Below are positions 5,777-62,041 of a stretch of DNA of 64,000 nt, piece after piece. A model generated the notes under the pieces. The model was given only the letters and a program-made list of their open reading frames with translations, was not told the DNA's origin and ran no database searches. The DNA comes from a virus, in IMG/VR virus record IMGVR_UViG_3300028394_000041, positions 32,001 through 96,000 of that record, one strand, 5' to 3'. Position 1 is the stretch's first letter; the number at the start of each line of letters is the position of its first letter. Made by a program: the position numbers and the translations under genes.

Positions 5777-5784
5777 GTTGATTT

Positions 5785-5813
5785 ATATTACGATATTTTT
5801 GTCATTTTGTCAA
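5785..5813 (-). promoter_or_regulatory. sigma70-type promoter for the structured RNA
   Basis: Minus strand TTGACA (5813-5808), 17-nt spacer, TAATAT (5790-5785). The first RNA helix begins 8 nt downstream. Confidence 0.7.
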
Positions 5814-5835
5814 ATTTTATTGATAATAAATAGAA

Positions 5836-6045
5836 ATGGAAATTATAAAAAATAAAGCCAGATGGATTGTTTACTCAAGTAAATGTGCAAAATATTATAA
5901 TATATATGATGAGAATGTTTATGACCTACCAAATGAATATCCATGCATCGCTATCCCTCAAATAATTTCAGATATTAACGGCAAAAGAATTAAATTTAAT
6001 TTTATTTACAAAAAAGATTGTCAAAAATTATTAAAAAATGTATAA
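5836..6045 (+). CDS. Hypothetical protein
   Basis: 69-aa ATG ORF filling the gap between the two RNA genes. Confidence 0.55.
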   Translation: MEIIKNKARWIVYSSKCAKYYNIYDENVYDLPNEYPCIAIPQIISDINGKRIKFNFIYKKDCQKLLKNV

Positions 6046-41957: not shown

Positions 41958-41958
41958 A

Positions 41959-43423: not shown

Positions 43424-43424
43424 T

Positions 43425-46400
43425 ATGGCAAATCCAAATAAAATCGTAGAAGGTTTAGAATTTTTAGAATACTCCTCAAATATGAGTTGCAGTTGGGGTG
43501 GTTTAAAATTCCCAGAAAGTACAGCTGCAGATTACATGGGTGGGAGTCATGCTTTATTTTTTAGTGGAAAAGACTACGATGGAAGAGATTTAGATACATA
43601 TAATTTTGGTGGAGGAGGTTTTGGTCCAAGAGGAGTAAGCGGTGCTTACGAGGCTGTAAGTCCAATTTTTGGACTAAACCCCAACTCTTTTCCTGGAGAT
43701 GCTCCAGCAAATCATATTTATACTAATTATGATGGTATGAGTTATGTAAGTGGCGCATGGGACGCTTCAACTCCTGGTGGAGGAGCAGAAAACGCTTGGG
43801 AAAGTGGATTTCAAAGAGTTAGAGGCTTTGATTATATTTGTCTTGGGCATGATAGAAATACTCCAAAATTACATTCAAAATTTGGAATGGGTCTAGACTT
43901 CGCTTCTTTAAATCCATATGTAGCTAGCGCAGGAGGAGCGAGCAGAACTGACGTAGGAATCACTTCGATTACAACAATAAGTACATTAGATATAATTGGA
44001 GAAGGACCAATTGAAGGTCTAGTTACTGGTACATATATATATAATTTAAGTGGAAAGAGGGCGGGAGATATAGGTTATAATAGTGTTAAAGTTCAATCAT
44101 ATTTTACAGGAGATAATGATTTAGCAACGAATCCTATGGTAGGTACGAATAATCCAGAAGCAAGATCTATTTTTTGGAATCAAACGCCATTAGCTAATGA
44201 AAGGGGTTATCTTAACTTTCAATATATTAATTATAGATTCAATAATGGAGAGCCAAGTATTCACACAGTTTCAAACCCTAAAGTATTACTGTACGAAGAT
44301 AGGTTTCATTACGACGGATATCAAGTAGATAAGTTTAAATATCCTATACCAGTTCAAGTTTCTAAACAAATTAATGAAAAATTAAGAGGGGCAAGTGCAT
44401 ATGATGGAGCTAGTTCTGGCGTATATTTTCCAAATAGATATTATATATATAATACAGATGTAGAAGCTTTAAGAATTAATTTCAAAGTTGAAGCTTTGTA
44501 TTGGCAACCAATTACTGGATCAAATGCATCAGAAACTTCTCCACGCACGGTAATGATTCAAATGTATTTATATAGATTATTTAAAGATGGCACAACTGCT
44601 TTCGCTTCAATGGAGAAACTTTCTAATACTGATCCATATTTATTTTCTTCAGATGCATTTCGTATACAAGGCAAAATAAATAATCCAACAATTTTGCATT
44701 ATACATGGTATATCAGATCTCATGCAGATAACGGATTCTTTTTCGAAATCCTACCAAATCAAATTGGGTGGATGATTAGAATTGATAAAGCTGCATACGA
44801 AGATTATAGTACATATGTTAAAAATACAACAGTAATAGAGAGCATCACAGAAGTTTACCACGATAGATTTACTTTTCCAAACACAGCATGCGTATGGACA
44901 AAATATGACGCAAGATATTTTTCGGATGTTCCAGAAAGAAGTTATAGAGCAAAGCTATTAAAAGTCAAGGTGCCAAATAATTATGACCCTATAGCAAAAA
45001 ATTATAATGGGAATTGGGATGGAAGGTTTAAATTAGCATGGACAGATAATCCAGCGTGGTGTTATTATGATCTAATCACTAGCAATAGATATGGACTTGG
45101 AAAGTATCTAGACTCTTCATTAGTAGATAAATGGACATTATATGAAATTTCTAAATATTGCGACACACTTGTTCCAGACGGAAATGGAGGCTTAGAGCCA
45201 AGATTTACATGTAATGTTCTTTTAACCTCTAAAGAAGAAGCTTATAAAGTTCTTGATGATATGGCATCAATTTTCAATGGACTAACTTATTACTCTGCTG
45301 GGCAAATATTCTTGACCCAAGATTCACCTAAAGATCCAATTTATCTATTCAATAATTCGAATGTTATAAATGGAGATTTTACTTATTCAGATAGTTCAAA
45401 AAGATTAAGAAGATCTGTAGCGTTAATAAGATATAACGATTCAACAAATAATTTCAAACCAGCAATTGAATATGTTGAAGATAGACAAAGTTTACAAAAA
45501 TATGGAATCAGAGAAGCAGAAGTTACTGCATTTGGATGCACAAGACCAAATCAAGCAAGAAGATTAGGTAAATGGTTTTTGAAAAGCGAAAATTTAGAAA
45601 CAGAAACAGTAGAATTTAAAGCTGGCCTAGAAGGGCATTTTTTAAAACCAGGAGACGTAATTAATGTTTTTGATCAAAATAGAAAAAATAATATTTACGC
45701 TGGTCGCACTTTAAGTTTAACAACTGGTAGAGCTACGCTGGATTTATCTTCTGATTATTTAAATATTTTAACTGGTCAACAAGCGGGTAATAGAATTAAA
45801 TTATCATTCTTAACTCCATCTTATACTTTAGAAAGAGGCACAGATATAGGAAATTTATATATCACTGGTTTTGACGCTAATTCTTCTGGAATATCTGGCT
45901 TAAATTCTACATTTTTTAGAAATTCTCAAATTCAAACGGTAACTATACAAAATCCAAATAACTATTTTTCTGGAAATAAAAATAGCAATGGATATTCAGG
46001 ATTTATTGATGTTATTCTACCTACCGCATTAAATACTAGTGGTCAATATTTACCTCAAAATACTCCATGGACAATAGAAGTAACTGGATATAATTCGATT
46101 ATAAATGCAAAATCTCAAATTAATAATCCAAGCAGTCTGGTATATCCAGGATATTACTTGGAAGCAACACTAGATAAACCAAAGCCATATAGAATTGTAA
46201 ATATTCAAGAAATTGAAAATAAAATATTTTCAGTAACAGCCTTAGAATATGTATTAGATAAATATAACGATATTGAAACTGGGTCAGCATTAGCTTCTGT
46301 TAATAATAAAAGAGATATTCCATCTACTCCATTTTTAGAAGCTAATATAATATATAGAAATTCTAAGGGAGGGTATGCAGATTCGTCTAATAACATCTTT

Positions 46401-46793
46401 ACGACTTACCAAACAAATGGTATTAATTCTATAAGTTACTTTATAACAGGTGGACCAAACTCTGGATTAGTTTCTAGATATTTAATATATAAGAGTAGCG
46501 GAGCTTTTATAAATGATCCGCCATCTCAATCTCAACTTTTAGCAATTAAAACTAACGATAGTTTAAATAGATCTGGTGTTGCATACAGTGCATTTGGTGG
46601 AGTTGGAACACTAACAACTGGAGCAGTTGATTTACCAGATTTCTTTACTCCTTTAGGAAAAGGAACTTTCTATTTGAGATGTTATGCTGAAAACGCCCTT
46701 GGAGAAACAGCTCCATATGCAGAAAAACTTATAACATTAACGCAGCAAGCTACATTAGCCCAGGAACAATTAGAGGATTATAACGTACAATGA
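43425..46793 (+). CDS. Central tail tip / host-specificity protein, lambda gpJ-like
   Basis: GEGPIEGL, KVKVPNNYDP, WDG.FK.AWTDNPAW..YDL...RYGLG, DG.GGLEPRFTCN, FGCT..QA.R.G.W, PGDVI. Confidence 0.92.
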   Translation: MANPNKIVEGLEFLEYSSNMSCSWGGLKFPESTAADYMGGSHALFFSGKDYDGRDLDTYNFGGGGFGPRGVSGAYEAVSPIFGLNPNSFPGDAPANHIYTNYDGMSYVSGAWDASTPGGGAENAWESGFQRVRGFDYICLGHDRNTPKLHSKFGMGLDFASLNPYVASAGGASRTDVGITSITTISTLDIIGEGPIEGLVTGTYIYNLSGKRAGDIGYNSVKVQSYFTGDNDLATNPMVGTNNPEARSIFWNQTPLANERGYLNFQYINYRFNNGEPSIHTVSNPKVLLYEDRFHYDGYQVDKFKYPIPVQVSKQINEKLRGASAYDGASSGVYFPNRYYIYNTDVEALRINFKVEALYWQPITGSNASETSPRTVMIQMYLYRLFKDGTTAFASMEKLSNTDPYLFSSDAFRIQGKINNPTILHYTWYIRSHADNGFFFEILPNQIGWMIRIDKAAYEDYSTYVKNTTVIESITEVYHDRFTFPNTACVWTKYDARYFSDVPERSYRAKLLKVKVPNNYDPIAKNYNGNWDGRFKLAWTDNPAWCYYDLITSNRYGLGKYLDSSLVDKWTLYEISKYCDTLVPDGNGGLEPRFTCNVLLTSKEEAYKVLDDMASIFNGLTYYSAGQIFLTQDSPKDPIYLFNNSNVINGDFTYSDSSKRLRRSVALIRYNDSTNNFKPAIEYVEDRQSLQKYGIREAEVTAFGCTRPNQARRLGKWFLKSENLETETVEFKAGLEGHFLKPGDVINVFDQNRKNNIYAGRTLSLTTGRATLDLSSDYLNILTGQQAGNRIKLSFLTPSYTLERGTDIGNLYITGFDANSSGISGLNSTFFRNSQIQTVTIQNPNNYFSGNKNSNGYSGFIDVILPTALNTSGQYLPQNTPWTIEVTGYNSIINAKSQINNPSSLVYPGYYLEATLDKPKPYRIVNIQEIENKIFSVTALEYVLDKYNDIETGSALASVNNKRDIPSTPFLEANIIYRNSKGGYADSSNNIFTTYQTNGINSISYFITGGPNSGLVSRYLIYKSSGAFINDPPSQSQLLAIKTNDSLNRSGVAYSAFGGVGTLTTGAVDLPDFFTPLGKGTFYLRCYAENALGETAPYAEKLITLTQQATLAQEQLEDYNVQ

Positions 46794-48262
46794 ACACTTT
46801 AGATCAAATTTCCTCCGCAGAAAATATAAAATTAACTTGGACTAATTCAATTAAAATTTCTCAATTTTTAAAACTAGAAGATGATGTAGATTATGATTCG
46901 CTTATTAAGCCTTACACTATACAAATTTTAAATGAAAATGAAGAAATTCTTAGAGAATATAATAATTTTAAAGATGGAAGAAAAAACACTTCTCTGATTC
47001 ATATAGCAATTCAAAAACCTGCAATTTTAAGAAGAGCTTATATGTTTGCTAATACAAGAAAACAATATAATAAGGTATTAAATACGATGACTTATTCTTT
47101 TGAATTTCCTTTTGAAGAGAATATTAAAAGTTATATTGAAAAAAATAATAAATTAGGATATTATAAAAATTTAAAAATTAAAGTCATATCTGAAGATAAT
47201 GATGACTCAAATGACGTATTAATAAATGTTACTTATAGAGATGTTAACGTAAACGATATAAATGATATTTTTATTAAAATTTTTAGAAATATAGAAAATA
47301 CAGGAATCAAATTAAAATTCAATAAAGAAAAATTTCTTAATAGTAATATTGAAAGTATACTAATCCAACCTTTAGACGACAATTCAAAAGAAAAATTTAA
47401 ATGCATATTCATTGATCAAATAAAAGAAAAATGGCTATCCATAATAGAAAATGAGTCTTCTATTAGTATTCCATTCCCAAATAATTATATCATAAAAAAT
47501 GATTCTCAATTTGATATAAAAGTATACTATTTTAACAAAGCTCAAACGAACATGTTGAATTCATTTAAAAATTTTAACAACAACGAAGAGATAATATTGG
47601 ATATCGCTTTAGAAAACTTTAACCAGCAAATGTTTGATGTGATCGATGTACCCAGCGAAGAAGAAGAATATAAAGTTTATTATCAAAATTTTATATATTT
47701 ATTTAATAGTGAAAGTTACAATAATATAGCTTGGCCTAATGAGTTTACATCAATTAACGGCATAGAATATAAAAAATATTTTCCATTAGCTAAAGATACT
47801 TCAAATAATGAAACATACTTAATTAACAGAGTAATTGTACCAGAGTCTTCTGCCTTAAGCTTAATTCATGACGAAAATTTATCAACAGATTTGATTGGTT
47901 ATAAATTTAAAGATTTAAACGGAAATATCAATTATAATGATATTTCTTCAGATTTAACATATCAGAAGAATACGAATATTAAAAGCATTGAAATTAAGAC
48001 TGTAATAGAAGAAAATGGTCAAACCTCTATATATCTTGAAGCGATCACAGACTTTATGGATACTTCTAATTTCAAAATAATAAATGTAAGCAATAATCTA
48101 TCGTTTATTGAAAGATATTTTACTAGTATTTCTGACCAAAATTATGTTACTCTATTATTTAAATTAAATTATAATTACGCAAATGATACATTTATGGACA
48201 CGCCTAAAAACCAATTATTATTCAATAAAGAGTTTATCTCTTTTGATTTGGATGTTGGATAA
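46790..48262 (+). CDS. Hypothetical protein (N/I/K-rich)
   Basis: 490-aa ORF coupled to gpJ by ATGA overlap; no recognised motif. Confidence 0.65.
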   Translation: MNTLDQISSAENIKLTWTNSIKISQFLKLEDDVDYDSLIKPYTIQILNENEEILREYNNFKDGRKNTSLIHIAIQKPAILRRAYMFANTRKQYNKVLNTMTYSFEFPFEENIKSYIEKNNKLGYYKNLKIKVISEDNDDSNDVLINVTYRDVNVNDINDIFIKIFRNIENTGIKLKFNKEKFLNSNIESILIQPLDDNSKEKFKCIFIDQIKEKWLSIIENESSISIPFPNNYIIKNDSQFDIKVYYFNKAQTNMLNSFKNFNNNEEIILDIALENFNQQMFDVIDVPSEEEEYKVYYQNFIYLFNSESYNNIAWPNEFTSINGIEYKKYFPLAKDTSNNETYLINRVIVPESSALSLIHDENLSTDLIGYKFKDLNGNINYNDISSDLTYQKNTNIKSIEIKTVIEENGQTSIYLEAITDFMDTSNFKIINVSNNLSFIERYFTSISDQNYVTLLFKLNYNYANDTFMDTPKNQLLFNKEFISFDLDVG

Positions 48263-51200
48263 TTATCTAACCTTCTTGTAAACAGAACTACTTAACATTC
48301 CGCCTGGTCTTTGTTGATCTGTAATAACTTTAACAACCTCAGTTTTGATTTTATCTGATAATTCTTTAGCTTGTTTCTCGGACGCTAATCTATTAGATCT
48401 TAATTGATTACCTGAGTTTGAATTACCCGCGTCCTCCGATACATTTCCAGATTGGTCAATACTAATAGATATGTTAATATTATTTGAAATTTCCCCAGCG
48501 GTTGTAGCTTCGGATTTTTTAGATCCTAAAATTCCAAGATCATTACCATCATCTGGAGAAACCATTCCACCAGATGCAAACTTTTTCATTCTTCCAGAAT
48601 TTATATTATCAAAGAATTTTTTCCCATAATGGTTGACTGAATCTTTTCTAATAACGTATTCTCCACCCATTAATAAAGCTGGAACATCATCTTTGCCAGT
48701 ATTTCCGCCTTTAGCAAAACCAATCATTCCTCCATTTGCTCTATTATAGACTGAATATGGACTCGTCCCTCCTCCTCCGATTTGACCCAGCCCAGCTCCA
48801 TATACTTTAGCTTGATTATACTGAGACATAGTAGGAGGCGGAGCACTTAATCTTCCAGAATTTCCTAAATTCAAGGCAGAGGTTCCGTAAGAAGATGGAG
48901 ATGCCATTGGAGCAGTAGCTGATAATCTAGAATTAGAAGCAGATGGAAGATTTAATTTTTGATTAGCGGCTTGGGTAGGAGATAGTCTTCCAGAGTTTCC
49001 TAAGTTTAAACCTGATGTCCCTGAGTCTCTTGGGCTACTTGGAGAGAATAATCCATTCCCAGCAAGAGCTTGTCCCAATAATCCTCCACCAACTGCCATA
49101 CCAGCAGAAAGTAATCCTCCCCAAAATATATTGTCTTGTTGTTTTTTATAATTATCTTGAGCCTCTTTGTTCATTTGATCTACTCGAGATCTATTTTCTA
49201 AATTATTTCTAATAGTATCTATAGCAGCATCTCTATTATTATAATATATGCCAATTCCTTCAGCAAGATAATCAATCAAACGACTTTTTTTATCTTGAAT
49301 TATTTTATTTTGAGGATTGTTTGGATCTTCCCTAGCGAGATCTGATAATCTTGGATCTAAAATATTTGTACCGCTACTTGCAAAGTCTGAATCATAATTA
49401 TAAACATTTCCTAATTCAAATCTTGCTCCTCCCCCAAATGCACTTGATAAATCTTCTGTTAATGAATTTCTATCAGAAAAAGATATATCATTTCCAGCAA
49501 GCATATCATTAATTGTATTTTGAAAAGCTTTAGCCATTTCTTTAGTAATGATTCTACCTTGTGCTTCTTTTCCTGCAATTATTAACGGATCTACTTTAGC
49601 GTTTGTGAGCATGTTCTGTATGCTTGATTCTGGAGGATTATAATTCGCATATCCTCCGCCAGCCATTTGAACAACTCCACCTTCATTTAATTTTTGTAAG
49701 AATCTATCTCCATATTTATTTACAGAAGATTTTTTAATAACATATTCTCCCTTTCCTAATGCAGCTGGAACATCGTCTTTTGTTCCAGATCCGCCCATTA
49801 CTTTTCCTCCATTAGAAAATCTTTGTATTCCACTAGACGTAACCATTCCACCATTAGCTCCGCCAAGTGGATTTTTAAATGCAGAAGGTATTCCGCCAAT
49901 GCTACTAAATAAAGAATTAAATATAGAATTCGTCGCCATTTGTAAAGCTAATTGTTGAATTTTATTAGCTATATTTAAAGCCATAGTTCTAAATGCATCA
50001 TCCACGGTCTTAGTTCCATCAATTACAGATTGAAAAGCGTTATTAAATTCAGATTTCATTGTTCGAGCTGTATCAACAAAAGTTGAATTAACGTCTCTAG
50101 CCATGTCTTGAGTACCATAAGTCATTTCTTCTGAAAAAGCAGCAAATGGATCACTTGGTTTAAATTTTTTCTCTCTAATTCTTGCAGTTCTTTCTGCTTC
50201 TCCAGCAGATTGAAGTTCATCCGCAAATACACTACCTTCTTTTGCGCCAGCTATTGCGGCTAATTTGTTTGCTAATAATGGAGCTACTCTATTTAAAGCT
50301 TCAAGATTGCCTTTGTATTCTTCTTCTAATTTCCTTAATTGCTCTGCTAAGGCTGACTTTGCATCTTCTCTTGCGGAGGCTGTATAGACGCTTTGATTTA
50401 ATCTATCGAAACCATTTTGCAATAACGCAGAAGAATTTTGAATTTCTTGATTTTTATTTTTATAATCTGAGATATCTCTTGTTGTAACGCTACCCTCATT
50501 AATTTTTGAAATCATTCTTTCTTGTTGAAGAATTGCTTGATCAATTAATTTCCTCTTTGTCTCTGGATCAAAAATCCCTTCATTAATAGCGTTTATTGTT
50601 TGGGCTCCAGTATTTTTAACTATCTCTTGAAAATCAATTTTATTTGTTTTGCCCATTTGTCTTAAATCTAAACCTTGGAAAGCCCCTGCACCCATATCAG
50701 CTTGAGCCTTTGATAAAGCTATTGAATTTAAATCTTTTCTAGAAGTCCTTCCTTCTGCCGCTTGAGCTACCCCTAATAATCCAAGTTTTGCAGCTTCAGC
50801 AGCTTTTGCTAATCCAGCTGTGTCATCTCCATATTGTTTTCTTAAGCCTATTTCTATTTCCCTATATCTATTAAGAGTCTCTTCTCTCAAAGATGCGCTT
50901 GAAATATTTTTGGCAAGATCACCCAGATTTGTACTAGAAATTGAAGAAGATAAGGCTGTTCTTTCTGCTGCAGCACTTATTTTAGCTAGTGCAATTTCGT
51001 AAGGAACACCAGCGTTAGTCATTGCTTCTAATTCTTTAACAAATTCTTCTTGGAATTTTTTTGCTTCGTTTTTTCGTTTTTCTTCATCAACAGTGCCACT
51101 GGCTATTTTACCCAAAGTTTCTTGAACTGTTTTCCCTAAGATTGAATTTATTTGAGTATCTTTAAATGAAGTATCCTTAAACAAATCTTGAAAATTACCA

Positions 51201-54200
51201 TTTTTTAAATTACTTAAAGCGGCTTGTCTTTTTTCAGAAGCAAGTGTATCTCCAGCACCATTTCCAGGAGTAAATAATTGATTTAAATTCTGAGATAATT
51301 GAGAAAAATTAAATAATTTATCTCTTATATTTTGTAATGTTTGAGCAACTAGCTCTCCTTGTGATCCAAGGTTTTTAAATTCTTCTATAATCTTTTGTAT
51401 TTTATCTTTTGGATCTCCATCTCCCTCTAAAATCATTTTAAATGTATCTTTAATATCTGCGCCATTTTTCTTGGTAACATCTTTAGATTCTACTAATCCA
51501 TCAACAAAAACATTTAATTCTTCATTAAAATTTTGTAAATTCTTAGCTGCAAGTTCCGAAGCTAATACTTGAGAAGCAATTTGTTTTTTTGTTTCTTCAG
51601 ATTTTGTGGCAAAATCTCTTCCTACTCCTTTAGGTAAAGCTTTAACTGGATCAAGAAGGCTATTAAGTTCATTGCCTAAAGAAGCTTCAGTGCTAACATA
51701 TTTTGCTGATCTTTCTAGCTCTTTAACTCTTTTACTTATATCTTCTTGACTAAAAGGAAGAGCTCCAGTTGACATAACACTTTTAGGTCCATTTTCAATT
51801 TTTGAAACATTAAATCCAAAATTATCTTGAAAGCCTTTGGAAGAGTCCTCTAAATCTTTTAATCCTTTTGATGTCGTAAATGAAACTAATTCAACGGCAT
51901 TCGCATATCCAGTTAAAGATTGCATTAATTTTTCATTATTGATTACTAATTCAGCAAATGTGTCGCCAGATCTAGTACGAAGTCTAGAAAATGCAGATAT
52001 ATTTTCATCAAATGTATCTTTTAATTTTCCTTCTTCTTTGAGCCTAACCACAGAGCTTGTAAAATCATCTATACTTTTTGCTGATTCTTTTGCTACCGTT
52101 GCTCTTCCTAAAGCTTCTCTAAGCGTTTCTTCATTTCCACTCTCTAATGCATCTTTAATTTGATTTGTTATTTCTGGTCCAGCGCTATTAAATATTTTTG
52201 CTAAAGAATTTGCTTGATTTTTTTCAACTCTTTGCAATTCAGCGCCCGTTCCTTTTATTTCTCCGCTTCTTAATCCTTCTGCTTGACCTTTAGAAATTAA
52301 AAATCCTTGTACATCTTCACTAAATCTAGCTAAATCATTTCCTGATTTTTCAGCTTGTTTTAAAAATTCATTAGCTCTACTATTTATAATATCAAGAGCT
52401 TTTTTAAAACCTATAATACTTCCAACTAAACCTCCAATTACAATTCCAGGAGTACCAAATAAAGCACCTAAACCAGCAAAACTTGCAGCCGTACCAATTC
52501 CTTCTGCTGCTCCAGCGGCAACCTTACTCTGAGGATTAAATTGAGCAAATGTTTGAGCAGCGATTGGTGCGCCTATACTCAATCCAATTCCAACGTTTTG
52601 TAATCTACCTAAAGCTTGACTTCTTGCATTTTGAGCTCTTTCAAGACCTCCTCTTGCAATCTCACCTCTAGTTCCTCCTGCAGCAGCTCTTGCTTCTAAT
52701 TCTGTGAGCGCTCTTCTTCCTCTTAATAAACTTGATGATTGAACTACTAATGCTTCAGTTTCAATATTTAATTTTTGATTTAATTGAGAAGCTCTACTTA
52801 ATTGAGTTTCTACTTTTCCTCCTGCAGCATCAATTAAACGATATTGATTTGTTAATTTAACTAATTCTTTATTTGCATCATCTAAGGATATTTTACCAGT
52901 AAAAACACTTCGAATTAATTGTTGAATTGCTACGACTGCTTCTTTTTCTGCGGGTTCAATTATACTGATTGGCATGCCGTTAGGCGCAGAACCAATATTA
53001 GTAATTTTTTGTAAAGCGAAATTTGGTATAAATCCAGAACTAAAAGCGCCAGATGTTTTTGCTTGGTCTATATTTTTTTTACTTGCAATTCCCTGCTGTA
53101 ATCCAAAAGGTTCATCTTGAGTATTATAAACTCCTAATCCAAGTGGATTATTAGAACCTATTAATTTATTACTTCGGTCAACTCTTATTTTAGACTTTGG
53201 TACTCCAGCAGATACTTCCCTAGAGACTGCCTCTTGTAGTGCTGAAAAATTAGGTACAAATCCTCCAGCAGCCAATCTTGGTTTTGGTAGTTTTGGATCA
53301 CTTTTAACAATAGCGTCTCTATAAGCTTTATCAATTATTTCTCGGGCTTGCGTAGTTGTTATTGTCCTCTTTGCGTCTGCACGTAAAACCGCTGGCTTAA
53401 ATTGAAATTTATCATTAAACGCGGTAGCTGGAGGAGAAGATTCCTCAAAATCAAACGGTTTTTGAGCCGTATTTTGATCAAAAGCTTTTTCTAAACCTCC
53501 TCCTTTTTTTGTACCTAAATTTACCGCTGCTTCAAAAATTGATCCTTCGGTGCCTCCTGGGAAAAGATTAATTCCAGGTTTTCTAGTATTAGAAGCAAGT
53601 GTAGCTCTAAATTTTGGATCTGGACTTAAAGGCCCAAAAATCTCATCGGCCAGTTTAGCAAGCGGATCAATAAATAATTTATTGATTTCTGTAGAAAAAG
53701 TACCTTGATTTTTAATTTTTTGACTATTTTTTAAATCTTCAAGCGTTCTAGCTTGCATTCCTTCGAATCTTACGGATCTTGGGTCTTTTGGATAACCTAA
53801 TGTTTTAAATGAAGTTTCAGGATTTACAGTACCTCTTATTCCGCCTACCCCAACTATACCTAATTTACTTGCATCATAAACAACAGTTTCTCCTTTTGCT
53901 CCTGTGGTTTTTTTAGAAGGATTAATTTTAATAGCATTTATTTCTTTTTGAATTTCTGGTGTTATTGTATAATTTCTTTTTTTAATTAAATCTTCAACAT
54001 CTATTTTTTCTTTTTGAGCTTCACTAAATAAACTTTGTGCGGATTGTAAACTATTTTTAGCAAAATTAGGTATAAACCCACTACTAGCATATGGATTAAA
54101 TCCATGAGTGCTTTCAAAACTATTTTCGTAATTTTTTCCAGCTGCACTTGCTTGAGGAGGCATAATTGCTGGTTGTGCCATCCCTGGAAATTTTTTAATT

Positions 54201-55942
54201 GTTTCTGCTGAATTATAAATTATTCTTCCTGAGCCTGGCATATTCATTTCTTTTACTTGTCCAGGTTTATATCCTCCCGCTAAAGCTCCATAAATTTCTG
54301 ATAATGCAAAATTAGGTATAAATCCAGAACTTTTTGTTGTTATTTGGCCTTTGCTAACACCTACTCCTTTTCCTAAAAGACCAGTTGTAACAGAATTAGA
54401 TAATGTTGTGGCTTGAGCTCTTAAAGCATTTTGTTCTTGTAAAATTCTTAATATTTTAGTTTCAACATCTAATACGGTAATTTGCTTGCTATTAATTGCA
54501 GCTAAAAGTTCTGGTTCTCTTAATAAAACGTCATTAATTTTAGATTGAAGTTGAGCACGAATTGCTGTTTGATCATTAATTCCCAATAAAGCTTTTACTC
54601 CAGAGCCAGCAAATTTAGCCAAATCTAAAGATAATTTTCCTATAACAGCAGTAATTAAAACTATGCCTGGCCCAGATATAAAAGTAGATAATCCCTTAAG
54701 TATTCCTCCTCCAAGTTTTGCGCCAACGCCTTCAGAATCTTGATTATTAATAGCTTCTAATAATTTATTAACATTTTTTAATGTGCCTTCTATAGCTGGT
54801 TGAAGCGCTCCAGATCCAACTGTTGATCCAATTTGAGTAACATTTTGTAATGTAGCGTTAAATAACGAAGATAAAGTTTGATTTAATGCTTCGTTTCTTT
54901 TTATGGCTTCATTTGTTGAGCTAGCAGAAGTTTGTAAAGCTCTATCATATACAGAATATTCTTTTCCTAAATCTCCTAAAGCAGCTTTTAATACGTTTAT
55001 TTGAAACACGCCACCGACAAGTTCTCCAGTTTGAGATTTTTGAGAATCACTTAATCCGTCAAATGTTGTAGCTAACTCTTTTAATATTGAAATAGCAGGC
55101 AAAGTATTTCCTTCTAAATCTCTAACGTTTAATCCCAAAGACTGTAATTGATCTAACACTTCTGTTCTTTGAATTCTTGTAAAAATTGTTTTTAAAGAGT
55201 TTCCAATAACTGCTCCACCTCGCGCTGTTGTTTGTTGCACACTAGTTACAATACCAATTAATTCATCAAATCCAACGCCAGCATCTTGAGCAGAACTTCC
55301 TACTCGCTGCAACGCGTTAACTAAATCGCCAGAACTTACAGCAAACGCGGCATCAACATTAGCCAATTTATTAACAATACCTGTAGAGTCTAACGCTGTT
55401 TTATTAAAACTGTTTATTGTGGCGGTAAGAGCTTCAACTGCACTATTTGCATCTAAACCGCTTAAGCGAGTCAAAATTAAAGCATCGCTTGTTCTTTTTA
55501 ATGTTTCTTCTACTCCAAGACCTTGACGAGCTAATTCTGTTGCTGCTACTGCAACGGTTTGAAATGATTGTCCTGTATTTTTAGCTATATCAAATAAAGT
55601 AGCTCCGAATTTGCTTAATCCTTCTGTGCTTGTATTTAATATAACATTTATATCTGCTAAAGACTTTTGCACATCAATTGAGCTTTTAATTAGGTCTATA
55701 AAAGCCTTTTCTACAGTATATATCAATCCTGCACTAGCTCCGAACGCAATAACGCGAGCATTGGAAGCATCTAATGATTTTTGAAATTCATTTGCTGCAC
55801 CAGTGATTCTACCTAAAGGTTGGGTAAAGGCTTTTTCATTCAATCCCTTCAATTTAAAGTCTTTAGATAAAGCGCTTTGAATATCTCTTTCAAGTTGCCT
55901 TGTATCCGCACCTATTGAAATTATGCCACCTGTTCTAGCCAT
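48263..55942 (-). CDS. Tape measure protein (TP901-like N-terminal domain) with internal cargo modules
   Basis: ELARQGL, LTATINSF, KLANVDA.FAVS..DL, GNSLKTIF.R, long Ala/Gln-rich helical body, two C-terminal DDVPA.L..GEYVI modules. SD GAAGGAG upstream. Confidence 0.93.
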   Translation of the reverse strand: MARTGGIISIGADTRQLERDIQSALSKDFKLKGLNEKAFTQPLGRITGAANEFQKSLDASNARVIAFGASAGLIYTVEKAFIDLIKSSIDVQKSLADINVILNTSTEGLSKFGATLFDIAKNTGQSFQTVAVAATELARQGLGVEETLKRTSDALILTRLSGLDANSAVEALTATINSFNKTALDSTGIVNKLANVDAAFAVSSGDLVNALQRVGSSAQDAGVGFDELIGIVTSVQQTTARGGAVIGNSLKTIFTRIQRTEVLDQLQSLGLNVRDLEGNTLPAISILKELATTFDGLSDSQKSQTGELVGGVFQINVLKAALGDLGKEYSVYDRALQTSASSTNEAIKRNEALNQTLSSLFNATLQNVTQIGSTVGSGALQPAIEGTLKNVNKLLEAINNQDSEGVGAKLGGGILKGLSTFISGPGIVLITAVIGKLSLDLAKFAGSGVKALLGINDQTAIRAQLQSKINDVLLREPELLAAINSKQITVLDVETKILRILQEQNALRAQATTLSNSVTTGLLGKGVGVSKGQITTKSSGFIPNFALSEIYGALAGGYKPGQVKEMNMPGSGRIIYNSAETIKKFPGMAQPAIMPPQASAAGKNYENSFESTHGFNPYASSGFIPNFAKNSLQSAQSLFSEAQKEKIDVEDLIKKRNYTITPEIQKEINAIKINPSKKTTGAKGETVVYDASKLGIVGVGGIRGTVNPETSFKTLGYPKDPRSVRFEGMQARTLEDLKNSQKIKNQGTFSTEINKLFIDPLAKLADEIFGPLSPDPKFRATLASNTRKPGINLFPGGTEGSIFEAAVNLGTKKGGGLEKAFDQNTAQKPFDFEESSPPATAFNDKFQFKPAVLRADAKRTITTTQAREIIDKAYRDAIVKSDPKLPKPRLAAGGFVPNFSALQEAVSREVSAGVPKSKIRVDRSNKLIGSNNPLGLGVYNTQDEPFGLQQGIASKKNIDQAKTSGAFSSGFIPNFALQKITNIGSAPNGMPISIIEPAEKEAVVAIQQLIRSVFTGKISLDDANKELVKLTNQYRLIDAAGGKVETQLSRASQLNQKLNIETEALVVQSSSLLRGRRALTELEARAAAGGTRGEIARGGLERAQNARSQALGRLQNVGIGLSIGAPIAAQTFAQFNPQSKVAAGAAEGIGTAASFAGLGALFGTPGIVIGGLVGSIIGFKKALDIINSRANEFLKQAEKSGNDLARFSEDVQGFLISKGQAEGLRSGEIKGTGAELQRVEKNQANSLAKIFNSAGPEITNQIKDALESGNEETLREALGRATVAKESAKSIDDFTSSVVRLKEEGKLKDTFDENISAFSRLRTRSGDTFAELVINNEKLMQSLTGYANAVELVSFTTSKGLKDLEDSSKGFQDNFGFNVSKIENGPKSVMSTGALPFSQEDISKRVKELERSAKYVSTEASLGNELNSLLDPVKALPKGVGRDFATKSEETKKQIASQVLASELAAKNLQNFNEELNVFVDGLVESKDVTKKNGADIKDTFKMILEGDGDPKDKIQKIIEEFKNLGSQGELVAQTLQNIRDKLFNFSQLSQNLNQLFTPGNGAGDTLASEKRQAALSNLKNGNFQDLFKDTSFKDTQINSILGKTVQETLGKIASGTVDEEKRKNEAKKFQEEFVKELEAMTNAGVPYEIALAKISAAAERTALSSSISSTNLGDLAKNISSASLREETLNRYREIEIGLRKQYGDDTAGLAKAAEAAKLGLLGVAQAAEGRTSRKDLNSIALSKAQADMGAGAFQGLDLRQMGKTNKIDFQEIVKNTGAQTINAINEGIFDPETKRKLIDQAILQQERMISKINEGSVTTRDISDYKNKNQEIQNSSALLQNGFDRLNQSVYTASAREDAKSALAEQLRKLEEEYKGNLEALNRVAPLLANKLAAIAGAKEGSVFADELQSAGEAERTARIREKKFKPSDPFAAFSEEMTYGTQDMARDVNSTFVDTARTMKSEFNNAFQSVIDGTKTVDDAFRTMALNIANKIQQLALQMATNSIFNSLFSSIGGIPSAFKNPLGGANGGMVTSSGIQRFSNGGKVMGGSGTKDDVPAALGKGEYVIKKSSVNKYGDRFLQKLNEGGVVQMAGGGYANYNPPESSIQNMLTNAKVDPLIIAGKEAQGRIITKEMAKAFQNTINDMLAGNDISFSDRNSLTEDLSSAFGGGARFELGNVYNYDSDFASSGTNILDPRLSDLAREDPNNPQNKIIQDKKSRLIDYLAEGIGIYYNNRDAAIDTIRNNLENRSRVDQMNKEAQDNYKKQQDNIFWGGLLSAGMAVGGGLLGQALAGNGLFSPSSPRDSGTSGLNLGNSGRLSPTQAANQKLNLPSASNSRLSATAPMASPSSYGTSALNLGNSGRLSAPPPTMSQYNQAKVYGAGLGQIGGGGTSPYSVYNRANGGMIGFAKGGNTGKDDVPALLMGGEYVIRKDSVNHYGKKFFDNINSGRMKKFASGGMVSPDDGNDLGILGSKKSEATTAGEISNNINISISIDQSGNVSEDAGNSNSGNQLRSNRLASEKQAKELSDKIKTEVVKVITDQQRPGGMLSSSVYKKVR

Positions 55943-56012: not shown

Positions 56013-57014
56013 TTACTCCCCATGTAGCTTCATAAGATCTTGCATAGTTAATACTCCACCTTTTTTCTCTGCAACGTCATGTAACGAGATAACATTTTTA
56101 TCTGCACCAATTTTAGCTAAATCTTCTTTTTTAGCACCAATAATCGAAGTAGATACTGTTCCATCAGTTTTTTGAGTATCATTCTTTTCTATCATTTCAT
56201 CTGCATTTTTACCAGTTTCTAGCCATTCTATAAGCTTATCTGGATCATTATAATAATCTTCTGGTGGAGTATGTTTAGAATTAGATACTATATTTTTAAA
56301 GTACCTAGCAAAACTAAATATTTCCATTTGATAAAAGGTTAAATCTATAATAGGTTTTCCATATAGATAATACGGATTTTCTGGGCTTAAATTAAATAAA
56401 TTAAGATAAAAAGAAGATAATGCAATTTTCTTTAAATTTTGTTCTGAAAACCTTATATTAACTTTATTGTAAATGAACACTAATTTTGTTATATCAAAAT
56501 TCTCAAGCTCTTCGAACTCTTCTTGAGAAAAAAACTTTTCATTTAAATTTATGTCTTTATATACAGATATAAACATAAAATATTCATTTATTTTTTTATT
56601 TGCATAGTCTTCTACTGTAAAGCCCAATAACTCAGTAAATTCGTGCAACAAGGCTTTTAAATCTTTTTCTTCTTGTTCGATAGACTTATTTATATATTTG
56701 ATATCTTCAATTTTAAATACTTTATTTTTGGTTTGTTTAAGGGAGGATATACTTTTTTTGATCTTATCTATCTTTTCGTTCTTCTCTAAAGACCAAAGAT
56801 TTTCTTTAATCAAATACTTTTCTTTTTCTTTTTTGGTCGGCAAACCGCTGTGTATTGCTCTTTTTTCAAAATCTTGCTTTTTATAATCTATATCGCCCGA
56901 ATTGATTGTAGTATTATGCTTTATATATAGGTCATGTTTTTCATAATTAGTTTTAGAAAAACCCTTTAATATATCTATAAAAGTAAGCTTTAAATTACTT
57001 TCACTATTTTCCAA
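56013..57014 (-). CDS. Hypothetical protein, possible tail assembly chaperone
   Basis: Position immediately upstream of the tape measure gene; coiled coil; TTG start. Confidence 0.5.
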   Translation of the reverse strand: MENSESNLKLTFIDILKGFSKTNYEKHDLYIKHNTTINSGDIDYKKQDFEKRAIHSGLPTKKEKEKYLIKENLWSLEKNEKIDKIKKSISSLKQTKNKVFKIEDIKYINKSIEQEEKDLKALLHEFTELLGFTVEDYANKKINEYFMFISVYKDINLNEKFFSQEEFEELENFDITKLVFIYNKVNIRFSEQNLKKIALSSFYLNLFNLSPENPYYLYGKPIIDLTFYQMEIFSFARYFKNIVSNSKHTPPEDYYNDPDKLIEWLETGKNADEMIEKNDTQKTDGTVSTSIIGAKKEDLAKIGADKNVISLHDVAEKKGGVLTMQDLMKLHGE

Positions 57015-57050
57015 TTAAATTACCCCACTTTCTTTATTGGGTTTTTTAAC

Positions 57051-57833
57051 TTATGGTTTAACTTCTTCTGGATTAGGAACGGTTTTAGGGTCTGTCGCAA
57101 TCATATTCAGAAGCTTCTCAAACTCTTCTTGGCTTGAGGCCCGACCAGTATACCAAAAACTTATAAGATAGATTAATTTAGCTAACGCTTGTTTTTCCCA
57201 AGAATTTTCTGGACCGTCTTCTATAGAGTCGTAAGCCGAAAGTTTTTCTTCAAAAGAAGCGCCGCTAAATAAATTTTCATATGTCTTATCTTTATTTTCT
57301 AATAAACTAAGCTGAAGAACCCACCACATTATAGTTTTATTTCTTGCTCTATTTTCTGCGGTTTGATCAAATAGGCTCGCTTGAGCGAATTCATAGTCTT
57401 GAAGCTTTTCTTTATTTTTTGATATTTCCCTTAATAAATTTTTATAGTCACTACGCTCTTCTTCTGTTCTTGAGGCTTCTTCTTTTAATGAAAGTTTTTG
57501 GAATTGGGTTTGTGTATCAAATAAAGACACATACAATTTAGTATATTCTTCTTTATCTAATTCACTGAAAATGCCGCCATCGTTACTAAACCTTTTGGCT
57601 AGTAAAGCTCTTGTAAGTAATCCAGCCTTTATACCTTCTGATAATTTTACTCCATAAAATAACTCAGCTTCATCAAATAAACTTCTGGTGGGCTTTTTTA
57701 TAGCTAATTTAGCAGGTACATTCTTCTTTACTTTTTTAGTAATCTTGACCTCTTCGTTTTTTTCATTTTTTGATATTTCTACTTCGTCAACTTCTTCTTC
57801 TTTATTTATTTCAAATCCAAACATTATTTTCAT
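57051..57833 (-). CDS. Hypothetical protein, possible tail assembly chaperone
   Basis: Position between tail tube and tape measure genes; LAIKKPTR...EAE motif; coiled coil. Confidence 0.5.
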   Translation of the reverse strand: MKIMFGFEINKEEEVDEVEISKNEKNEEVKITKKVKKNVPAKLAIKKPTRSLFDEAELFYGVKLSEGIKAGLLTRALLAKRFSNDGGIFSELDKEEYTKLYVSLFDTQTQFQKLSLKEEASRTEEERSDYKNLLREISKNKEKLQDYEFAQASLFDQTAENRARNKTIMWWVLQLSLLENKDKTYENLFSGASFEEKLSAYDSIEDGPENSWEKQALAKLIYLISFWYTGRASSQEEFEKLLNMIATDPKTVPNPEEVKP

Positions 57834-58105
57834 ATTTTTTCTCCATTATTTTCAATTAAATTATTTAAATAGTCTTTTATTTTACCGTAGTAAACAACGC
57901 CACCAATTGTTTTGATGAACTTATGCTTCTTTTCATTATCCCAATTTTTATAATTTTTGATAAAGTTAAGTTTCTTTAACGCGATTAGATTTGGCTTTAA
58001 AATTCCAAAGTCGTCCTTTAGACTTTTTTGGATGCTTTGCACAGAAAGATTGCCTTCGATTATTTCATCTATAGAAAAATTATAATTTAGTCTCTTGGTT
58101 TTCAT
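57830..58105 (-). CDS. Hypothetical protein
   Basis: 91-aa ORF with ATGA overlaps at both ends. Confidence 0.65.
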   Translation of the reverse strand: MKTKRLNYNFSIDEIIEGNLSVQSIQKSLKDDFGILKPNLIALKKLNFIKNYKNWDNEKKHKFIKTIGGVVYYGKIKDYLNNLIENNGEKI

Positions 58106-58326
58106 TTGAGTGTTATATTAATCTTACTAAAGCTTTCTTCTATTTCTCTTACTGCGTCATTGGCGTTATCAAGAACTCTTTTGCGTATTTTTTGATAGGT
58201 TTCACTATTTATATTATAACCAGAATCACTTAAATCTTCAAGAATAAAAAAGAAACTTTTATATATACTTGTAATCTTTCTCTTTATCTGAAAAAGAGTC
58301 ATATCTTTTATAGGATCATTTTCCAT
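58102..58326 (-). CDS. Hypothetical protein
   Basis: 74-aa ORF with KIRKRVLD.AND motif, downstream of GTGTAA (58369-58374). Confidence 0.65.
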   Translation of the reverse strand: MENDPIKDMTLFQIKRKITSIYKSFFFILEDLSDSGYNINSETYQKIRKRVLDNANDAVREIEESFSKINITLK

Positions 58327-58375
58327 AATCTTTTACCTTTTGACCTTAAACCTTTAACCTAACATGTATTACACC

Positions 58376-58409
58376 AAAAAATAACCCCCGCTTACGCGAG
58401 GGTTATTTT
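58376..58409 (-). terminator. Rho-independent terminator after the major tail protein
   Basis: Minus strand AAAATAACCCTCGC-GTAA-GCGGGGGTTATTTTTT: GC stem, GNRA loop, U-tract. Confidence 0.85.
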
Positions 58410-58430
58410 AATTTAACTTAGTTTAACTTA

Positions 58431-59576
58431 TTAGGCTTGACCGCTAATAAATATTCCGTTAGTCAAGTCTTGAGGACCACCAACTTGAGTGCTAAATGTC
58501 ATACTAACGGTCTTATTCTTGCCGATATCAGAGCTAAACTCTTGACTATCTAGTTTTGCGCCTTTAAGTTTGAATGAAGCAACTGTTGTGGCAGAATCTG
58601 TTGGACTCTTGATTGTAATTGTTGGTGTAAATGTTCCTCCATCTGCAGCAACAGTTTGAGCTAGAGCACCTGTTTGTAGGTCTGTCATTTGAGCATCGAC
58701 TTTAAGAGTTACAGTAAGTGGAAAGTTAATTTCGCGACTAAATGCAAATCTACTTCCTAATTTTTCAATTGGAGTACGTCCTAAATCAAAACTCATGGTA
58801 TAATTCTGTACATTCATTGTAGTGGTATCTGCTCCACCAGCGTTTGTATTAGCTATGGATAAACTAATATCTCCTGGTCGAAGAGCACTGATTCCACTAA
58901 TATTTGTTGTAGCGCTAGAATTTTGTACAGCTTTTGGTAATTGATAAAAATTAGTTAATGCTGCTCCATTTGTTGGATTAATTGCTGGGGTATAATTTCC
59001 ACTTGTGCCTTTTTGGAAATTCATGTTCAATCCTTCAATATTAACTGTGGCTGTTGGGAAATTGCCAACTGAAGCTTCTGTAGAATAAGAAGTTAAAAAT
59101 GCATTACCAATACCAATAACGCCGTTGTTAGCTGTACCAGTCTCAGAATACTCGACAGCATCAGAACCTTCTGAAACAGTTCTGATAAAGTAGTTTCTTT
59201 CGTCTTGTATTTTGTTTAAAATTCCAGAAATAGCAGAGACTTCGTTTGCAGTATTAGAAATTGAGAACCCTAATCCACTTTCGTTAGAAAGATTTGCTAG
59301 TAAATAACTAAAATCAAGTGAAACGGTTGGACTACTCAAGATAACACGGTCAATTGCAGCTAGTTGGCCAAATTGATTTACGTCAGTGCGATCAACTTTG
59401 AAACTGTAATTTACAGTTTGAATTCTTTGAAGTTGTTTAACTAAGTTAGAGTTTTCATTTGCTACATTGGTGCTTCCACCTTGTCCAGCTGTGAATGTTC
59501 CATAATGAAAACCTGATGCGGGTGAGGGCCCAGCGTAAAGGGCTTCTGATTGATAAATTATTCTATTTCTAGGCAT
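58431..59576 (-). CDS. Major tail tube protein with an internally duplicated tube domain
   Basis: Position upstream of the chaperone/TMP genes, GGAG SD, own terminator, two similar beta-rich halves. Confidence 0.75.
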   Translation of the reverse strand: MPRNRIIYQSEALYAGPSPASGFHYGTFTAGQGGSTNVANENSNLVKQLQRIQTVNYSFKVDRTDVNQFGQLAAIDRVILSSPTVSLDFSYLLANLSNESGLGFSISNTANEVSAISGILNKIQDERNYFIRTVSEGSDAVEYSETGTANNGVIGIGNAFLTSYSTEASVGNFPTATVNIEGLNMNFQKGTSGNYTPAINPTNGAALTNFYQLPKAVQNSSATTNISGISALRPGDISLSIANTNAGGADTTTMNVQNYTMSFDLGRTPIEKLGSRFAFSREINFPLTVTLKVDAQMTDLQTGALAQTVAADGGTFTPTITIKSPTDSATTVASFKLKGAKLDSQEFSSDIGKNKTVSMTFSTQVGGPQDLTNGIFISGQA

Positions 59577-59601
59577 ATTATTTGTTCTCCATTTGTAGTT
59601 A

Positions 59602-59607
59602 TTACAC
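59602..59607 (-). promoter_or_regulatory. GTGTAA element upstream of the major tail gene
   Basis: TTACAC on the + strand; the 25-nt leader contains GGAG. Confidence 0.6.
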
Positions 59608-59632
59608 CGATTTTTAGTAGATTTTTATTTTT

Positions 59633-60502
59633 TTATTGTCTTGGGTATCTATTTTTTATTATCTCAAAATCAACAAAAGCAGAATATACATTTCTATTTA
59701 AACTGTTTGTAGTATTTAATAATCTAGTATCAGTTTTAGACACAGTAACATCATTAATATATACATAATCTGAATCTGCTATTTTATTTTTAGTATAACC
59801 AGTATAATCAAAACATTTATTTGCAGTAGATATAGAGCCTAGAGAATTAAATGGCATTTCATTAGGGTATATTAATGGTATTAATTGCCTAGAGGTATCT
59901 CTCATTATGCTTGTTACAGCATCCAAATTATATACATTATCAGCTAATATTATAGCCCTAATATTACCCACTGTTTGATCTAAACCACCAAAAGCCAAGG
60001 GTTTATTTCTGCCGCCTTGATATTTTAAATATATAACAGGATAAGTTTCAGCATTTATAGGTAGACCAGTTGGGTTTTGATATGTTCTAGGATTAATTTG
60101 ATAAGAGGTTTCAAATAATACATTTTCTTCACTTTTGCTAGTCAAAAACATATTAAAATCTTTAACAGCATAATTGGCACTTAAAGAAGCGCTAGGATTA
60201 GGTATGCTTTGGCTAAAATATAATTGACCTTCTTGAGCGTTAATCCCACTTAATCCACTTTGACCAACAGTTATAAAATTTCCATTTAAATATACGCCAC
60301 TTATAATATCAGCCCCACTTATAGAGCAATCAATAACCATTTGTTTAAATGGTGCTCCATAAGTATAATATCCATGATACATATTGCTGATTTCATAAAA
60401 TGCACTAGAATGATTTGTAAAAGCTTCGCCTTTAGTTAGTACTTTATTATCTAACCAAAGCAACATATTCGTCATTAAGATATTGTCAAATTGCGGTATC
60501 AT
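59633..60502 (-). CDS. Putative tail terminator / neck protein
   Basis: Position in the head-tail gene order; YPVIYL....GRNKPLAFGG motif. Confidence 0.5.
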   Translation of the reverse strand: MIPQFDNILMTNMLLWLDNKVLTKGEAFTNHSSAFYEISNMYHGYYTYGAPFKQMVIDCSISGADIISGVYLNGNFITVGQSGLSGINAQEGQLYFSQSIPNPSASLSANYAVKDFNMFLTSKSEENVLFETSYQINPRTYQNPTGLPINAETYPVIYLKYQGGRNKPLAFGGLDQTVGNIRAIILADNVYNLDAVTSIMRDTSRQLIPLIYPNEMPFNSLGSISTANKCFDYTGYTKNKIADSDYVYINDVTVSKTDTRLLNTTNSLNRNVYSAFVDFEIIKNRYPRQ

Positions 60503-61089
60503 TTTAATCCTTTTACAAAGTTACGATAAAGTTCAGACATATATGATATTGATTTGTAAGCGGTGCTTCTAATTTTATTTTTAGATTGAATTCCTCTGCC
60601 AGATCTGCTATTTTTAAATATTACGCCATAAACGTAATAACCAAATCCAGAAATTCCATCTTCTACTCCCTTTACCCAACTTCTTCCTCTTTCAAAAGGA
60701 AGAGGCGTTTCTGATCTTATTTCTTCTAAAGAAGGAGTATATACATCATATTTTAATTCAAAAGTTTTTTTATCAAATTTTGGATTCTTGCCTAAAAATG
60801 TATTTTGTTTGATTAGTTTTTTTAAATCTTCAACTGGTTTATCTGCTTCATCAAACCCAATAAAAGCAAAAAGATTCTCTTGTCCATTTAATGTATTACT
60901 TACATTTTCTCCGTCTGGTCCAGCGCTTAACTCTTTTGAAATTGGATGATTTTCTATCTCTTGAATGTAAAAATTTAAATTTTCATCTAAAACTTCTTTA
61001 GCGTATTCAATAGATTTTTGCTTAAACGCTTCTTCAAAAGCTGGAGATATTTCGTCTCGAATCTTTTTTATATCTATCTTGCTAGCCAT
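60499..61089 (-). CDS. Putative tail completion / neck protein
   Basis: Position; NLFAFIGF and SWVKGVEDGISG motifs; basic C-terminus. Confidence 0.45.
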   Translation of the reverse strand: MASKIDIKKIRDEISPAFEEAFKQKSIEYAKEVLDENLNFYIQEIENHPISKELSAGPDGENVSNTLNGQENLFAFIGFDEADKPVEDLKKLIKQNTFLGKNPKFDKKTFELKYDVYTPSLEEIRSETPLPFERGRSWVKGVEDGISGFGYYVYGVIFKNSRSGRGIQSKNKIRSTAYKSISYMSELYRNFVKGLK

Positions 61090-61529
61090 TATTTTGTTTG
61101 CTCCAATCCATATACATAATAAGAATTATTCAAATACTTTTTTATAGTATCTTCTGTTATAACATTCCAAGTTTTTCCATCAAATTCTAATTTAATTGTT
61201 TTACCATTAGCAATAAAATCTCTAGCATTTTGTTTAACTTTTAAAGTAACGTCTCCACGAGCAAATACTAATTTTAAATCACTATTGACCGCATCTGTGT
61301 CTCTAGCATTATTATAATATATTCTTCCATTAAAAATTCCAGTAACAGGTAGATATGTATAATTTACTGAATCTGAACTAGATCCATATCCATAAAGTGG
61401 AGTGCTTTGTAATTCTTGAATTACTTTAATTGGCTCTTTATGAACTATAAAACTTCTAGAAAAATAATCAAAAAATTCATCGTATGCGTTAGAAAACTCT
61501 GCTGCTGTATTTGAATTTATAAAGCTCAT
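61089..61529 (-). CDS. Putative head-closure protein
   Basis: 146-aa beta-rich ORF (KLEFDGKTWNV) in the head-tail position. Confidence 0.5.
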   Translation of the reverse strand: MSFINSNTAAEFSNAYDEFFDYFSRSFIVHKEPIKVIQELQSTPLYGYGSSSDSVNYTYLPVTGIFNGRIYYNNARDTDAVNSDLKLVFARGDVTLKVKQNARDFIANGKTIKLEFDGKTWNVITEDTIKKYLNNSYYVYGLEQTK

Positions 61530-61531
61530 GA

Positions 61532-62041
61532 TTACGCATTATATATGCTTCTTATTTTATATAATGAATTTTTATAATTAACATCGTATGAGCCTTCAAT
61601 AAAATCATCTCCTGAGACTTGCAGTGGCCCAGAATTATTGTTTTGGTATTGAGATGCTAAAGTTTTTAATTCATTATATTCTTCTTTTCTTATAGCAATA
61701 TAATTTTTAAGAACTTCATTTTTATTAACTTTTTGAACAGTACCAATATCATCTTTAATAGAAACAAAATCAGAAGATGCTGAACTAGCAGTACTTTTTA
61801 TTTTAAGATCAAAATAGTATATAGAATACATTTTTTTGAATATATATTTCTCAATATCAGATAAATTTGGAGATATTTCAAAAGTTGAGCTATCTATTGA
61901 AAAACTAGCATTAATAATGTTATTTAAACCGCCAATATTTCGTCTTACCCATGCAGCTATAGCTGCTATGCTAAAATCATCTGGTTCGCCCATTTCTTCA
62001 TAAATCTCTTGGGCAATAGAGGTTACGGTATTTAATATCAT
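61532..62041 (-). CDS. Putative head-tail adaptor protein
   Basis: Helical 169-aa ORF at the start of the neck operon; GTGTAA (62050-62055) 8 nt upstream. Confidence 0.45.
   Translation of the reverse strand: MILNTVTSIAQEIYEEMGEPDDFSIAAIAAWVRRNIGGLNNIINASFSIDSSTFEISPNLSDIEKYIFKKMYSIYYFDLKIKSTASSASSDFVSIKDDIGTVQKVNKNEVLKNYIAIRKEEYNELKTLASQYQNNNSGPLQVSGDDFIEGSYDVNYKNSLYKIRSIYNA

Follow-up and report, generated by a model that had tools for sequence, protein, structure and literature searches.

A giant tail tape measure protein, P0001, is encoded on the minus strand (positions 48263..55942, an open reading frame (ORF) of 2559 aa) of the 64,000-nucleotide stretch of DNA, from a large, uncultured phage of aquatic origin, that we analyze here and call the window (IMG/VR virus record IMGVR_UViG_3300028394_000041, positions 32,001 to 96,000). 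We show that a short junction peptide, GF(I/V)PNF, fences separately folding modules in the N-terminal third of this TP901-type tape measure, and that the junctions are where related phages exchange entire modules or gain further ones. Our favored account goes further: the fenced modules are swappable, the central one carries a putative enzyme or ligand-binding site, and the junction peptide is a candidate processing or docking site. Taken whole, we judge this account to be somewhat probable and hold it with reserve.

Membership of the protein in the TP901 family rests on its profile match to PhageMin_Tail (Pfam PF10145), which covers aa 120-305 and scores 103.9 bits where the cut-off is 33.2 (E 1.3e-29), and it also matches fourteen PHROG tape-measure families. 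Its length and its place beside tail tip genes are as expected of a TP901-type protein, a kind that is very long, largely helical and encoded next to tail tube and tail tip genes. Four copies of the junction peptide stand within it, all on the minus strand: GFIPNF at aa 540-545 (motif 1, 54308..54325), GFIPNF at aa 622-627 (motif 2, 54062..54079), GFVPNF at aa 894-899 (motif 3, 53246..53263) and GFIPNF at aa 970-975 (motif 4, 53018..53035). Successive copies are spaced by 82, 272 and 76 aa. The window's six frames contain no fifth GF(I/V)PNF copy, and within the protein even the shorter string F[IV]P is found only at the four junction motifs. The same four motifs recur at 82, 250-294 and 73-76 aa in most relatives, and 483 unique instances yield the family logo (A/K)-(A/S)-x-G-(F/Y)-(I/V)-P-N-F-(A/S). 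A six-residue peptide that is repeated four times, with its spacing conserved across a family, is far beyond chance. In an AlphaFold2 (AF2) model of aa 528-989, all four motifs have a predicted local confidence score (pLDDT) below 50, and the segments between them are folded. A literature search for the motif returned nothing relevant. Some copies have Ser in place of Asn, which makes self-cleavage at the motif by Asn cyclization unlikely, and readings of the motif as a prepilin-type G|F site, a beta-clamp motif or an SSB-tail motif were dropped for poor fit, judged by eye only.

Module exchange at the junctions is recorded in a nearly identical relative, P0041 (locus L004), that has a different central allele. 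The two proteins are 99% identical over aa 1-527, 89% in module A (between motifs 1 and 2) and 92% in module B (between motifs 3 and 4). Past the cassette, identity stays at 84-96% through aa 976-2000 and drops to 65% for the last 560 aa. The central module, between motifs 2 and 3, shows 30% identity in one of its parts and 16% in the other, the core. The DNA alignment gives the boundaries. Two blocks of the tape measure gene align, nt 1-1881 at 96.2% and nt 2679-5948 at 93.2%, and the DNA that separates them shows no similarity. The first block ends on the third base of codon 627, which closes motif 2, and the second begins one base ahead of codon 894, at the start of motif 3. Because these breakpoints fall at the motif edges, with motif 2 on the left and motif 3 on the right, the replaced piece is window 53265-54061, exactly the central module. 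The allele swapped into L004 (L004:3295-4092) is closest (35-41%) to alleles of the P0086/P0103-type lineage. Around motifs 1 and 4, about 40 nt of DNA (54291-54331 and 53003-53041, minus strand) cross-match at 85-88% between the P0001 gene and L004; the junction DNA is therefore similar enough to provide short recombination substrates.

Distant relatives have gained extra modules, up to six of them, each bounded by the motif and mutually unrelated. In P0184 (4831 aa), six extra modules lie between the central domain and module B; P0189, P0186, P0173, P0192, P0167 and L072/L074 contain one to three, and in L067/L071/L085 other modules follow module A. Relatives carry three to nine motif-bounded modules, to which the Pfam searches assigned no effector function; the upper end, up to nine, is found in P0184 and P0174 (4350 aa), none with a Pfam family. 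Two weak matches were seen alongside: P0184 has a HIGH_NTase1 match at aa 478-559, and an extra 105-aa module between two junction peptides in L068 (2066-2380) has a DGNHR...IP element and a sub-threshold match to ParB_N (E 0.068).

An earlier note, made from the letters of this DNA, had located the four motifs and their spacings exactly, and had proposed GFIPNF as a processing or module-exchange site. With the L004 breakpoints at motif edges and the extra motif-bounded modules of the relatives, the idea of module exchange is well supported. The note also asked whether different cargo domains sit between conserved motifs, and this holds in one sense but not in another: the L004 allele swap and the extra modules are such variation, but the central segment itself is homologous in 149 of 152 unique inter-motif segments, which rules out different cargo families, or an assortment of toxins, in most relatives.

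The family in which these exchanges take place is large. At least 1389 proteins, among 8000 candidates scored, match aa 520-1000 at E <=1e-3, and the 120 matches listed are all giants of 1538-2669 aa, nearly all with PF10145. For 193 proteins and 88 loci, 281 sequences in all, we split the sequence at each motif and clustered the pieces. The layout of module A, central module and module B is found in 164 of the 281, and another 34 have module A and the central module with a degenerate third motif. A tblastn search of cultured phages (~50,000 records) gave no match to the cassette, and among species genomes it was found only in four contigs of metagenome-assembled genomes. The central domain occurs only within tape-measure-like giants, at about aa 640-920; the short matches that we checked as possible stand-alone proteins are fragments of longer genes.

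The two outer modules of the cassette are small and related to each other. Module A (aa 546-621; 54080..54307, minus strand) is the most conserved part of the whole protein, with about 27 invariant residues across 36 sequences, and is modeled by AF2 as a small alpha/beta module of a helix, four strands and a helix (pLDDT 65-82). Module B (aa 900-969; 53036..53245, minus strand) has the conserved stretch NPLGLGVYNTxDEP, and each module combines a helix, a few strands and a YN(S/T)xxE element. Single-sequence BLASTP of A against B aligns nothing beyond the motifs themselves; when their profiles, each with its terminal motifs, are compared by hhalign, the probability is 92% (E 6e-7), and on this basis the modules are paralogues, in line with the resemblance that had been noticed between the two short modules. 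Neither module has a Pfam or PHROG match, and module A has no usable match in the ESM Atlas.

A GG..G.KDDVPA.L..GEYVI.K.SVN.YG motif occurs twice near the C-terminus, at aa 2041-2095 and 2403-2457 (window positions 49658-49822 and 48572-48736, minus strand), and resembles the C-terminal GG...PAGIVHRGEFVF region of lambda gpH; the two copies are separated by a low-complexity stretch rich in Ser and Pro and by a third hydrophobic segment of the protein, at aa 2271-2296. In P0130 and P0175, an alternative first module, of a type that we call cluster 3, reads ...NT(G/S)EY(I/M)VPN(F/Y).GGG.AIFN..., and the junction peptide there follows a GEY element resembling the C-terminal GEYV motif. This arrangement hints that the two motif families may be related.

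We now turn to the central module (aa 628-893; 53264..54061, minus strand), which consists of a variable helical N-terminal part and a core, aa 683-893, that is conserved. When 46 copies with identity down to 11-15% (range 11-20%) are aligned, five residues are invariant, and four short elements on the minus strand contain them. The first, G800-S-I-F-E804 (53531..53545), lies in a predicted helix; its G and E are invariant and its F is kept in >=90% of copies. The second, P-F-D831-F-E-E (aa 829-834; 53441..53458), lies in predicted coil and has the invariant D831. The third, A-D856-A-K858-R-T (aa 855-860; 53363..53380), lies in a predicted strand and has the invariant K858, and the fourth, K872-A-Y (53321..53329), lies in the helix that follows and has the invariant K872. 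F803 and F846 are nearly invariant. Position 856 is D or E in all copies displayed, which are half of the 46 rows (ADAK, GDFK, IESK, AEVK), and this interchange makes the element a true (D/E)-x-K. Such invariance among 46 copies that have otherwise diverged widely makes some form of active or ligand site plausible, and we consider it probable on this pattern of conservation.

The predicted structure of the core is confident (pLDDT 88.7 and predicted template-modeling score (pTM) 0.81; AF2, from a 45-sequence alignment). Six strands are followed by two long helices, the E804 helix, about 40 mostly coil residues that include D831, the D856/K858 strand (model residues 172-179) and finally the K872 helix. 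The D831 region has a pLDDT of 69-81 and contains no strand. With the core model as query, no Foldseek match in PDB or BFVD had an E value below 0.38. Among 48,161 representative chains compared by VIA-align, the top score was Z 4.3, for some 45 residues of a helix hairpin, and a second look with VIA gave Z <=3.2. The fold search with the whole-cassette model (pLDDT 70.8) found nothing. At the sequence level, the central domain has no Pfam or PHROG match; when the 46 aligned domains were each compared with Pfam at E up to 10, only scattered single matches appeared. Searches of PDB sequences (phmmer and profile) gave only low-complexity or lectin matches at E >=0.03, and the core has no usable match in the ESM Atlas. 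A confident fold that has no structural match, together with a candidate active site, makes the domain a good target for structure determination and enzymology.

These data bear directly on the reading that the earlier note had put forward, in which the central domain is a PD-(D/E)XK nuclease, cut from the tape measure at GFIPNF and injected to act against host DNA. Its residue motifs are present as described (GSIFE, PFDFEE and ADAKRT), and the ordered E...D...(D/E)-x-K pattern is real and invariant at the level of sequence: a helix Glu, an Asp and a (D/E)-x-K with D/E interchange. The last of these lies in a strand that leads into a helix, which is also the arrangement of the canonical core in that superfamily. 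The T5 tape measure offers a precedent for an enzyme domain that is cut off, and the ParB_N-like match in L068, below threshold as it is, suggests a DNA-related theme. The restriction-endonuclease fold itself found no support. The structure prediction and Foldseek search of the central segment retrieved no nuclease, the best hits being the Z 4.3 helix hairpin and Foldseek matches at E >0.3. The model has no hairpin between the Glu helix and the (D/E)xK strand, so that the canonical beta1-beta2 hairpin is not predicted and D831 sits in coil, and in short alleles the Asp comes only about 9 residues past the Glu helix. The domain has instead extra N-terminal strands and two long helices. No Pfam or PDB-profile match links any of the 46 members to a nuclease, and hhalign against a YraN/UPF0102 alignment from 30 genomes, the sole PD-(D/E)XK family compared profile to profile, gave 0.07% probability with an alignment that was uncleaned and has at least one row (L091) from the wrong strand. 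A nuclease carried beside the phage's own DNA would also need explaining. Consequently, we regard membership of the PD-(D/E)XK superfamily as unlikely, and the injected nuclease as equally unlikely.

In the account that we favor, the central domain is a family-specific globular domain of unrecognized fold, and its invariant acidic and lysine constellation would most likely mark either an enzyme that depends on metal or a site for binding a ligand. Hydrophobic segments lie to both sides of the cassette. Upstream is a Gly-rich segment (aa 412-447; 54602..54709, minus strand; maximum 1.76 in a Kyte-Doolittle 19-residue window), and downstream are two Gly-zipper-like segments (aa 1117-1187; 52382..52594, minus strand; Kyte-Doolittle), of which aa 1151-1182 have a weak Pfam match to the C19orf12 glycine zipper. 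The central domain would leave the tail with the tape measure at infection, and its place of action would then be the inner membrane of the host or the space immediately within it. If the hydrophobic segments insert after ejection, as proposed for T5 pb2, the cassette would form a loop on one side of the membrane. The replacement of the central module by alleles of 16% identity that keep the invariant residues suggests selection by a host partner, an inhibitor or a defense.

By analogy with T5 pb2, the junction peptide, predicted to be disordered, would most likely serve in processing or in docking. In T5, the cut in pb2 follows R1127, with a hydrophobic stretch on one side and the muralytic domain on the other (PMC10038345). 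The T5 record reads NSFVPR|AEGG at this site, which is the sole F[IV]P in the 1219-aa pb2; the cut at SFVPR|A separates an enzyme domain from the ruler, and here the corresponding sequence is GF(I/V)PNF|(A/S). No such F[IV]P peptide was found in lambda gpH. Cleavage at the junction peptide is a reasonable idea, suggested by this likeness, that we hold tentatively and rate below an even chance; a docking role is equally open. A stronger version, in which a host or phage protease cuts the junctions during assembly or ejection, releases a new class of metal-dependent enzyme, and in relatives further changeable effectors, into the host as the DNA enters, and host inhibitors or defenses drive the swaps, seems to us distinctly improbable.

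Several points weigh against the favored account as a whole. Three copies of a folded 30-kDa domain would be too large for the lumen of a siphovirus tail. The central domain and the extra modules match no known fold or family, and no Pfam family was found in the extra modules examined. The likeness to the T5 site consists of F-V-P and a following Ala only, and was noticed post hoc. Modules A and B give no BLASTP alignment with pb2C and 0.06-0.14% probability in hhalign; neither homology to pb2C nor its metallopeptidase motif was found. The Pfam search also found no peptidase domain in the tape measure.

A second alternative dispenses with enzymatic function. Tape measures contact inner-membrane proteins and defense nucleases of the host and vary in ways that evade them; for lambda gpH the contact is ManYZ, and tape measure regions are where escape from the SNIPE defense maps (PMC13190303). 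This variation therefore provides a non-enzymatic explanation of the central module swap, in which the domain is a host-contact module, either binding an inner-membrane or periplasmic host factor that DNA entry requires or forming the surface that a host defense sees, and allele replacement shifts host range or escapes defense. The clean allele swap in a tape measure that is otherwise 93-99% identical, the position of the cassette between two membrane-type hydrophobic segments and the published precedents all speak for it. However, the invariance of G, E, D, K and K down to 11-15% identity is more typical of a catalytic, metal or ligand site, and modules A and B are conserved far beyond what would be expected of arms-race surfaces; on balance, we consider this explanation improbable. 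A purely assembly-related cassette, with peptides that dock to the tail tube, a chaperone or the terminator, modules that add length or act as stops and no role after ejection, would suit motifs that are disordered, repeated and as extremely conserved as short docking peptides and a module A that is the protein's most conserved segment, but we think it highly improbable because it leaves the invariant acidic and lysine constellation, the gain of many unrelated modules in relatives and the central replacement by very distant alleles unexplained.

The setting of the gene is that of a large phage with a lambda-like tail tip, as follows from the gene content of the window (ribonucleotide reductase, DnaB, a split DnaE and a glycan operon) and from homology matches to the lambda tail tip genes gpM, gpL, gpK, gpI and gpJ at 39478-46793 on the plus strand. 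These tip genes run opposite to the minus-strand tape measure gene and converge on it, whereas lambda has a single operon. The gpK homologue (41908-42690) combines JAB and NlpC/P60. The gpL homologue (40014-41957, plus strand) has 647 aa, far more than its lambda counterpart, and includes an F5/8 type C (discoidin) domain. After gpJ, a 490-aa ORF (46790-48262, plus strand) abuts the tape measure stop codon; its match to LPD24, a domain associated with large polyvalent proteins, is weak and falls short of the cut-off (E 0.0058). Eight minus-strand ORFs at 56013-62041, upstream of the gene for the tape measure, lack any Pfam or PHROG match and presumably encode the tail tube, chaperones (56013-58105) and head-tail connectors.

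How does the cassette compare with known systems? Tape measures are usually viewed as rulers, sometimes with a cell-wall enzyme. Embedded domains in tape measures are already known; here a standard junction peptide organizes them. With TP901-1- and lambda-type tape measures, P0001 shares the PF10145 core, hydrophobic segments and an embedded non-ruler domain, and with lambda gpH the C-terminal GG...PA...GE.V motif. The tape measure of mycobacteriophage TM4 has a peptidoglycan-hydrolase motif (PMC1796659). Unlike T5 pb2 and TM4, the protein here has a repeated junction peptide and several modules, in the N-terminal third rather than at the C-terminus, and these modules have no recognized fold or peptidoglycan-hydrolase signature. 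The cassette was found in no cultured phage.

The polyvalent proteins of phages and conjugative elements (Iyer et al. 2017, PMC5512222), which typically combine a zincin-like processing peptidase with known LPD domains, are alike in stringing unrelated domains along a single giant chain that probably accompanies the DNA into the host, and in a domain content that varies between relatives, with L068 possibly carrying a ParB-like module. In contrast, they are not tape measures, a term absent from PMC5512222, and no conserved junction peptide has been described for them. Pfam searches of P0001, P0184, P0189, P0186, P0173, P0192 and P0167 found no peptidase or LPD family.

Polymorphic toxins have demarcation motifs of their own, VENN in CdiA and PxxxxDPxGL in Rhs. 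As in those systems, a short conserved peptide marks the exchange of a variable module between near-identical proteins. In contrast to the C-terminal toxins, the module here is internal and fenced on both sides, and it belongs to one domain family in most relatives. In a very large and wholly uncultured family, the same short peptide serves as the standard joint at which folded modules are inserted into the ruler, added to it or exchanged. If these modules are delivered, siphovirus tails would carry a changeable protein payload, a plug-in system comparable to the polymorphic toxins and the polyvalent proteins.

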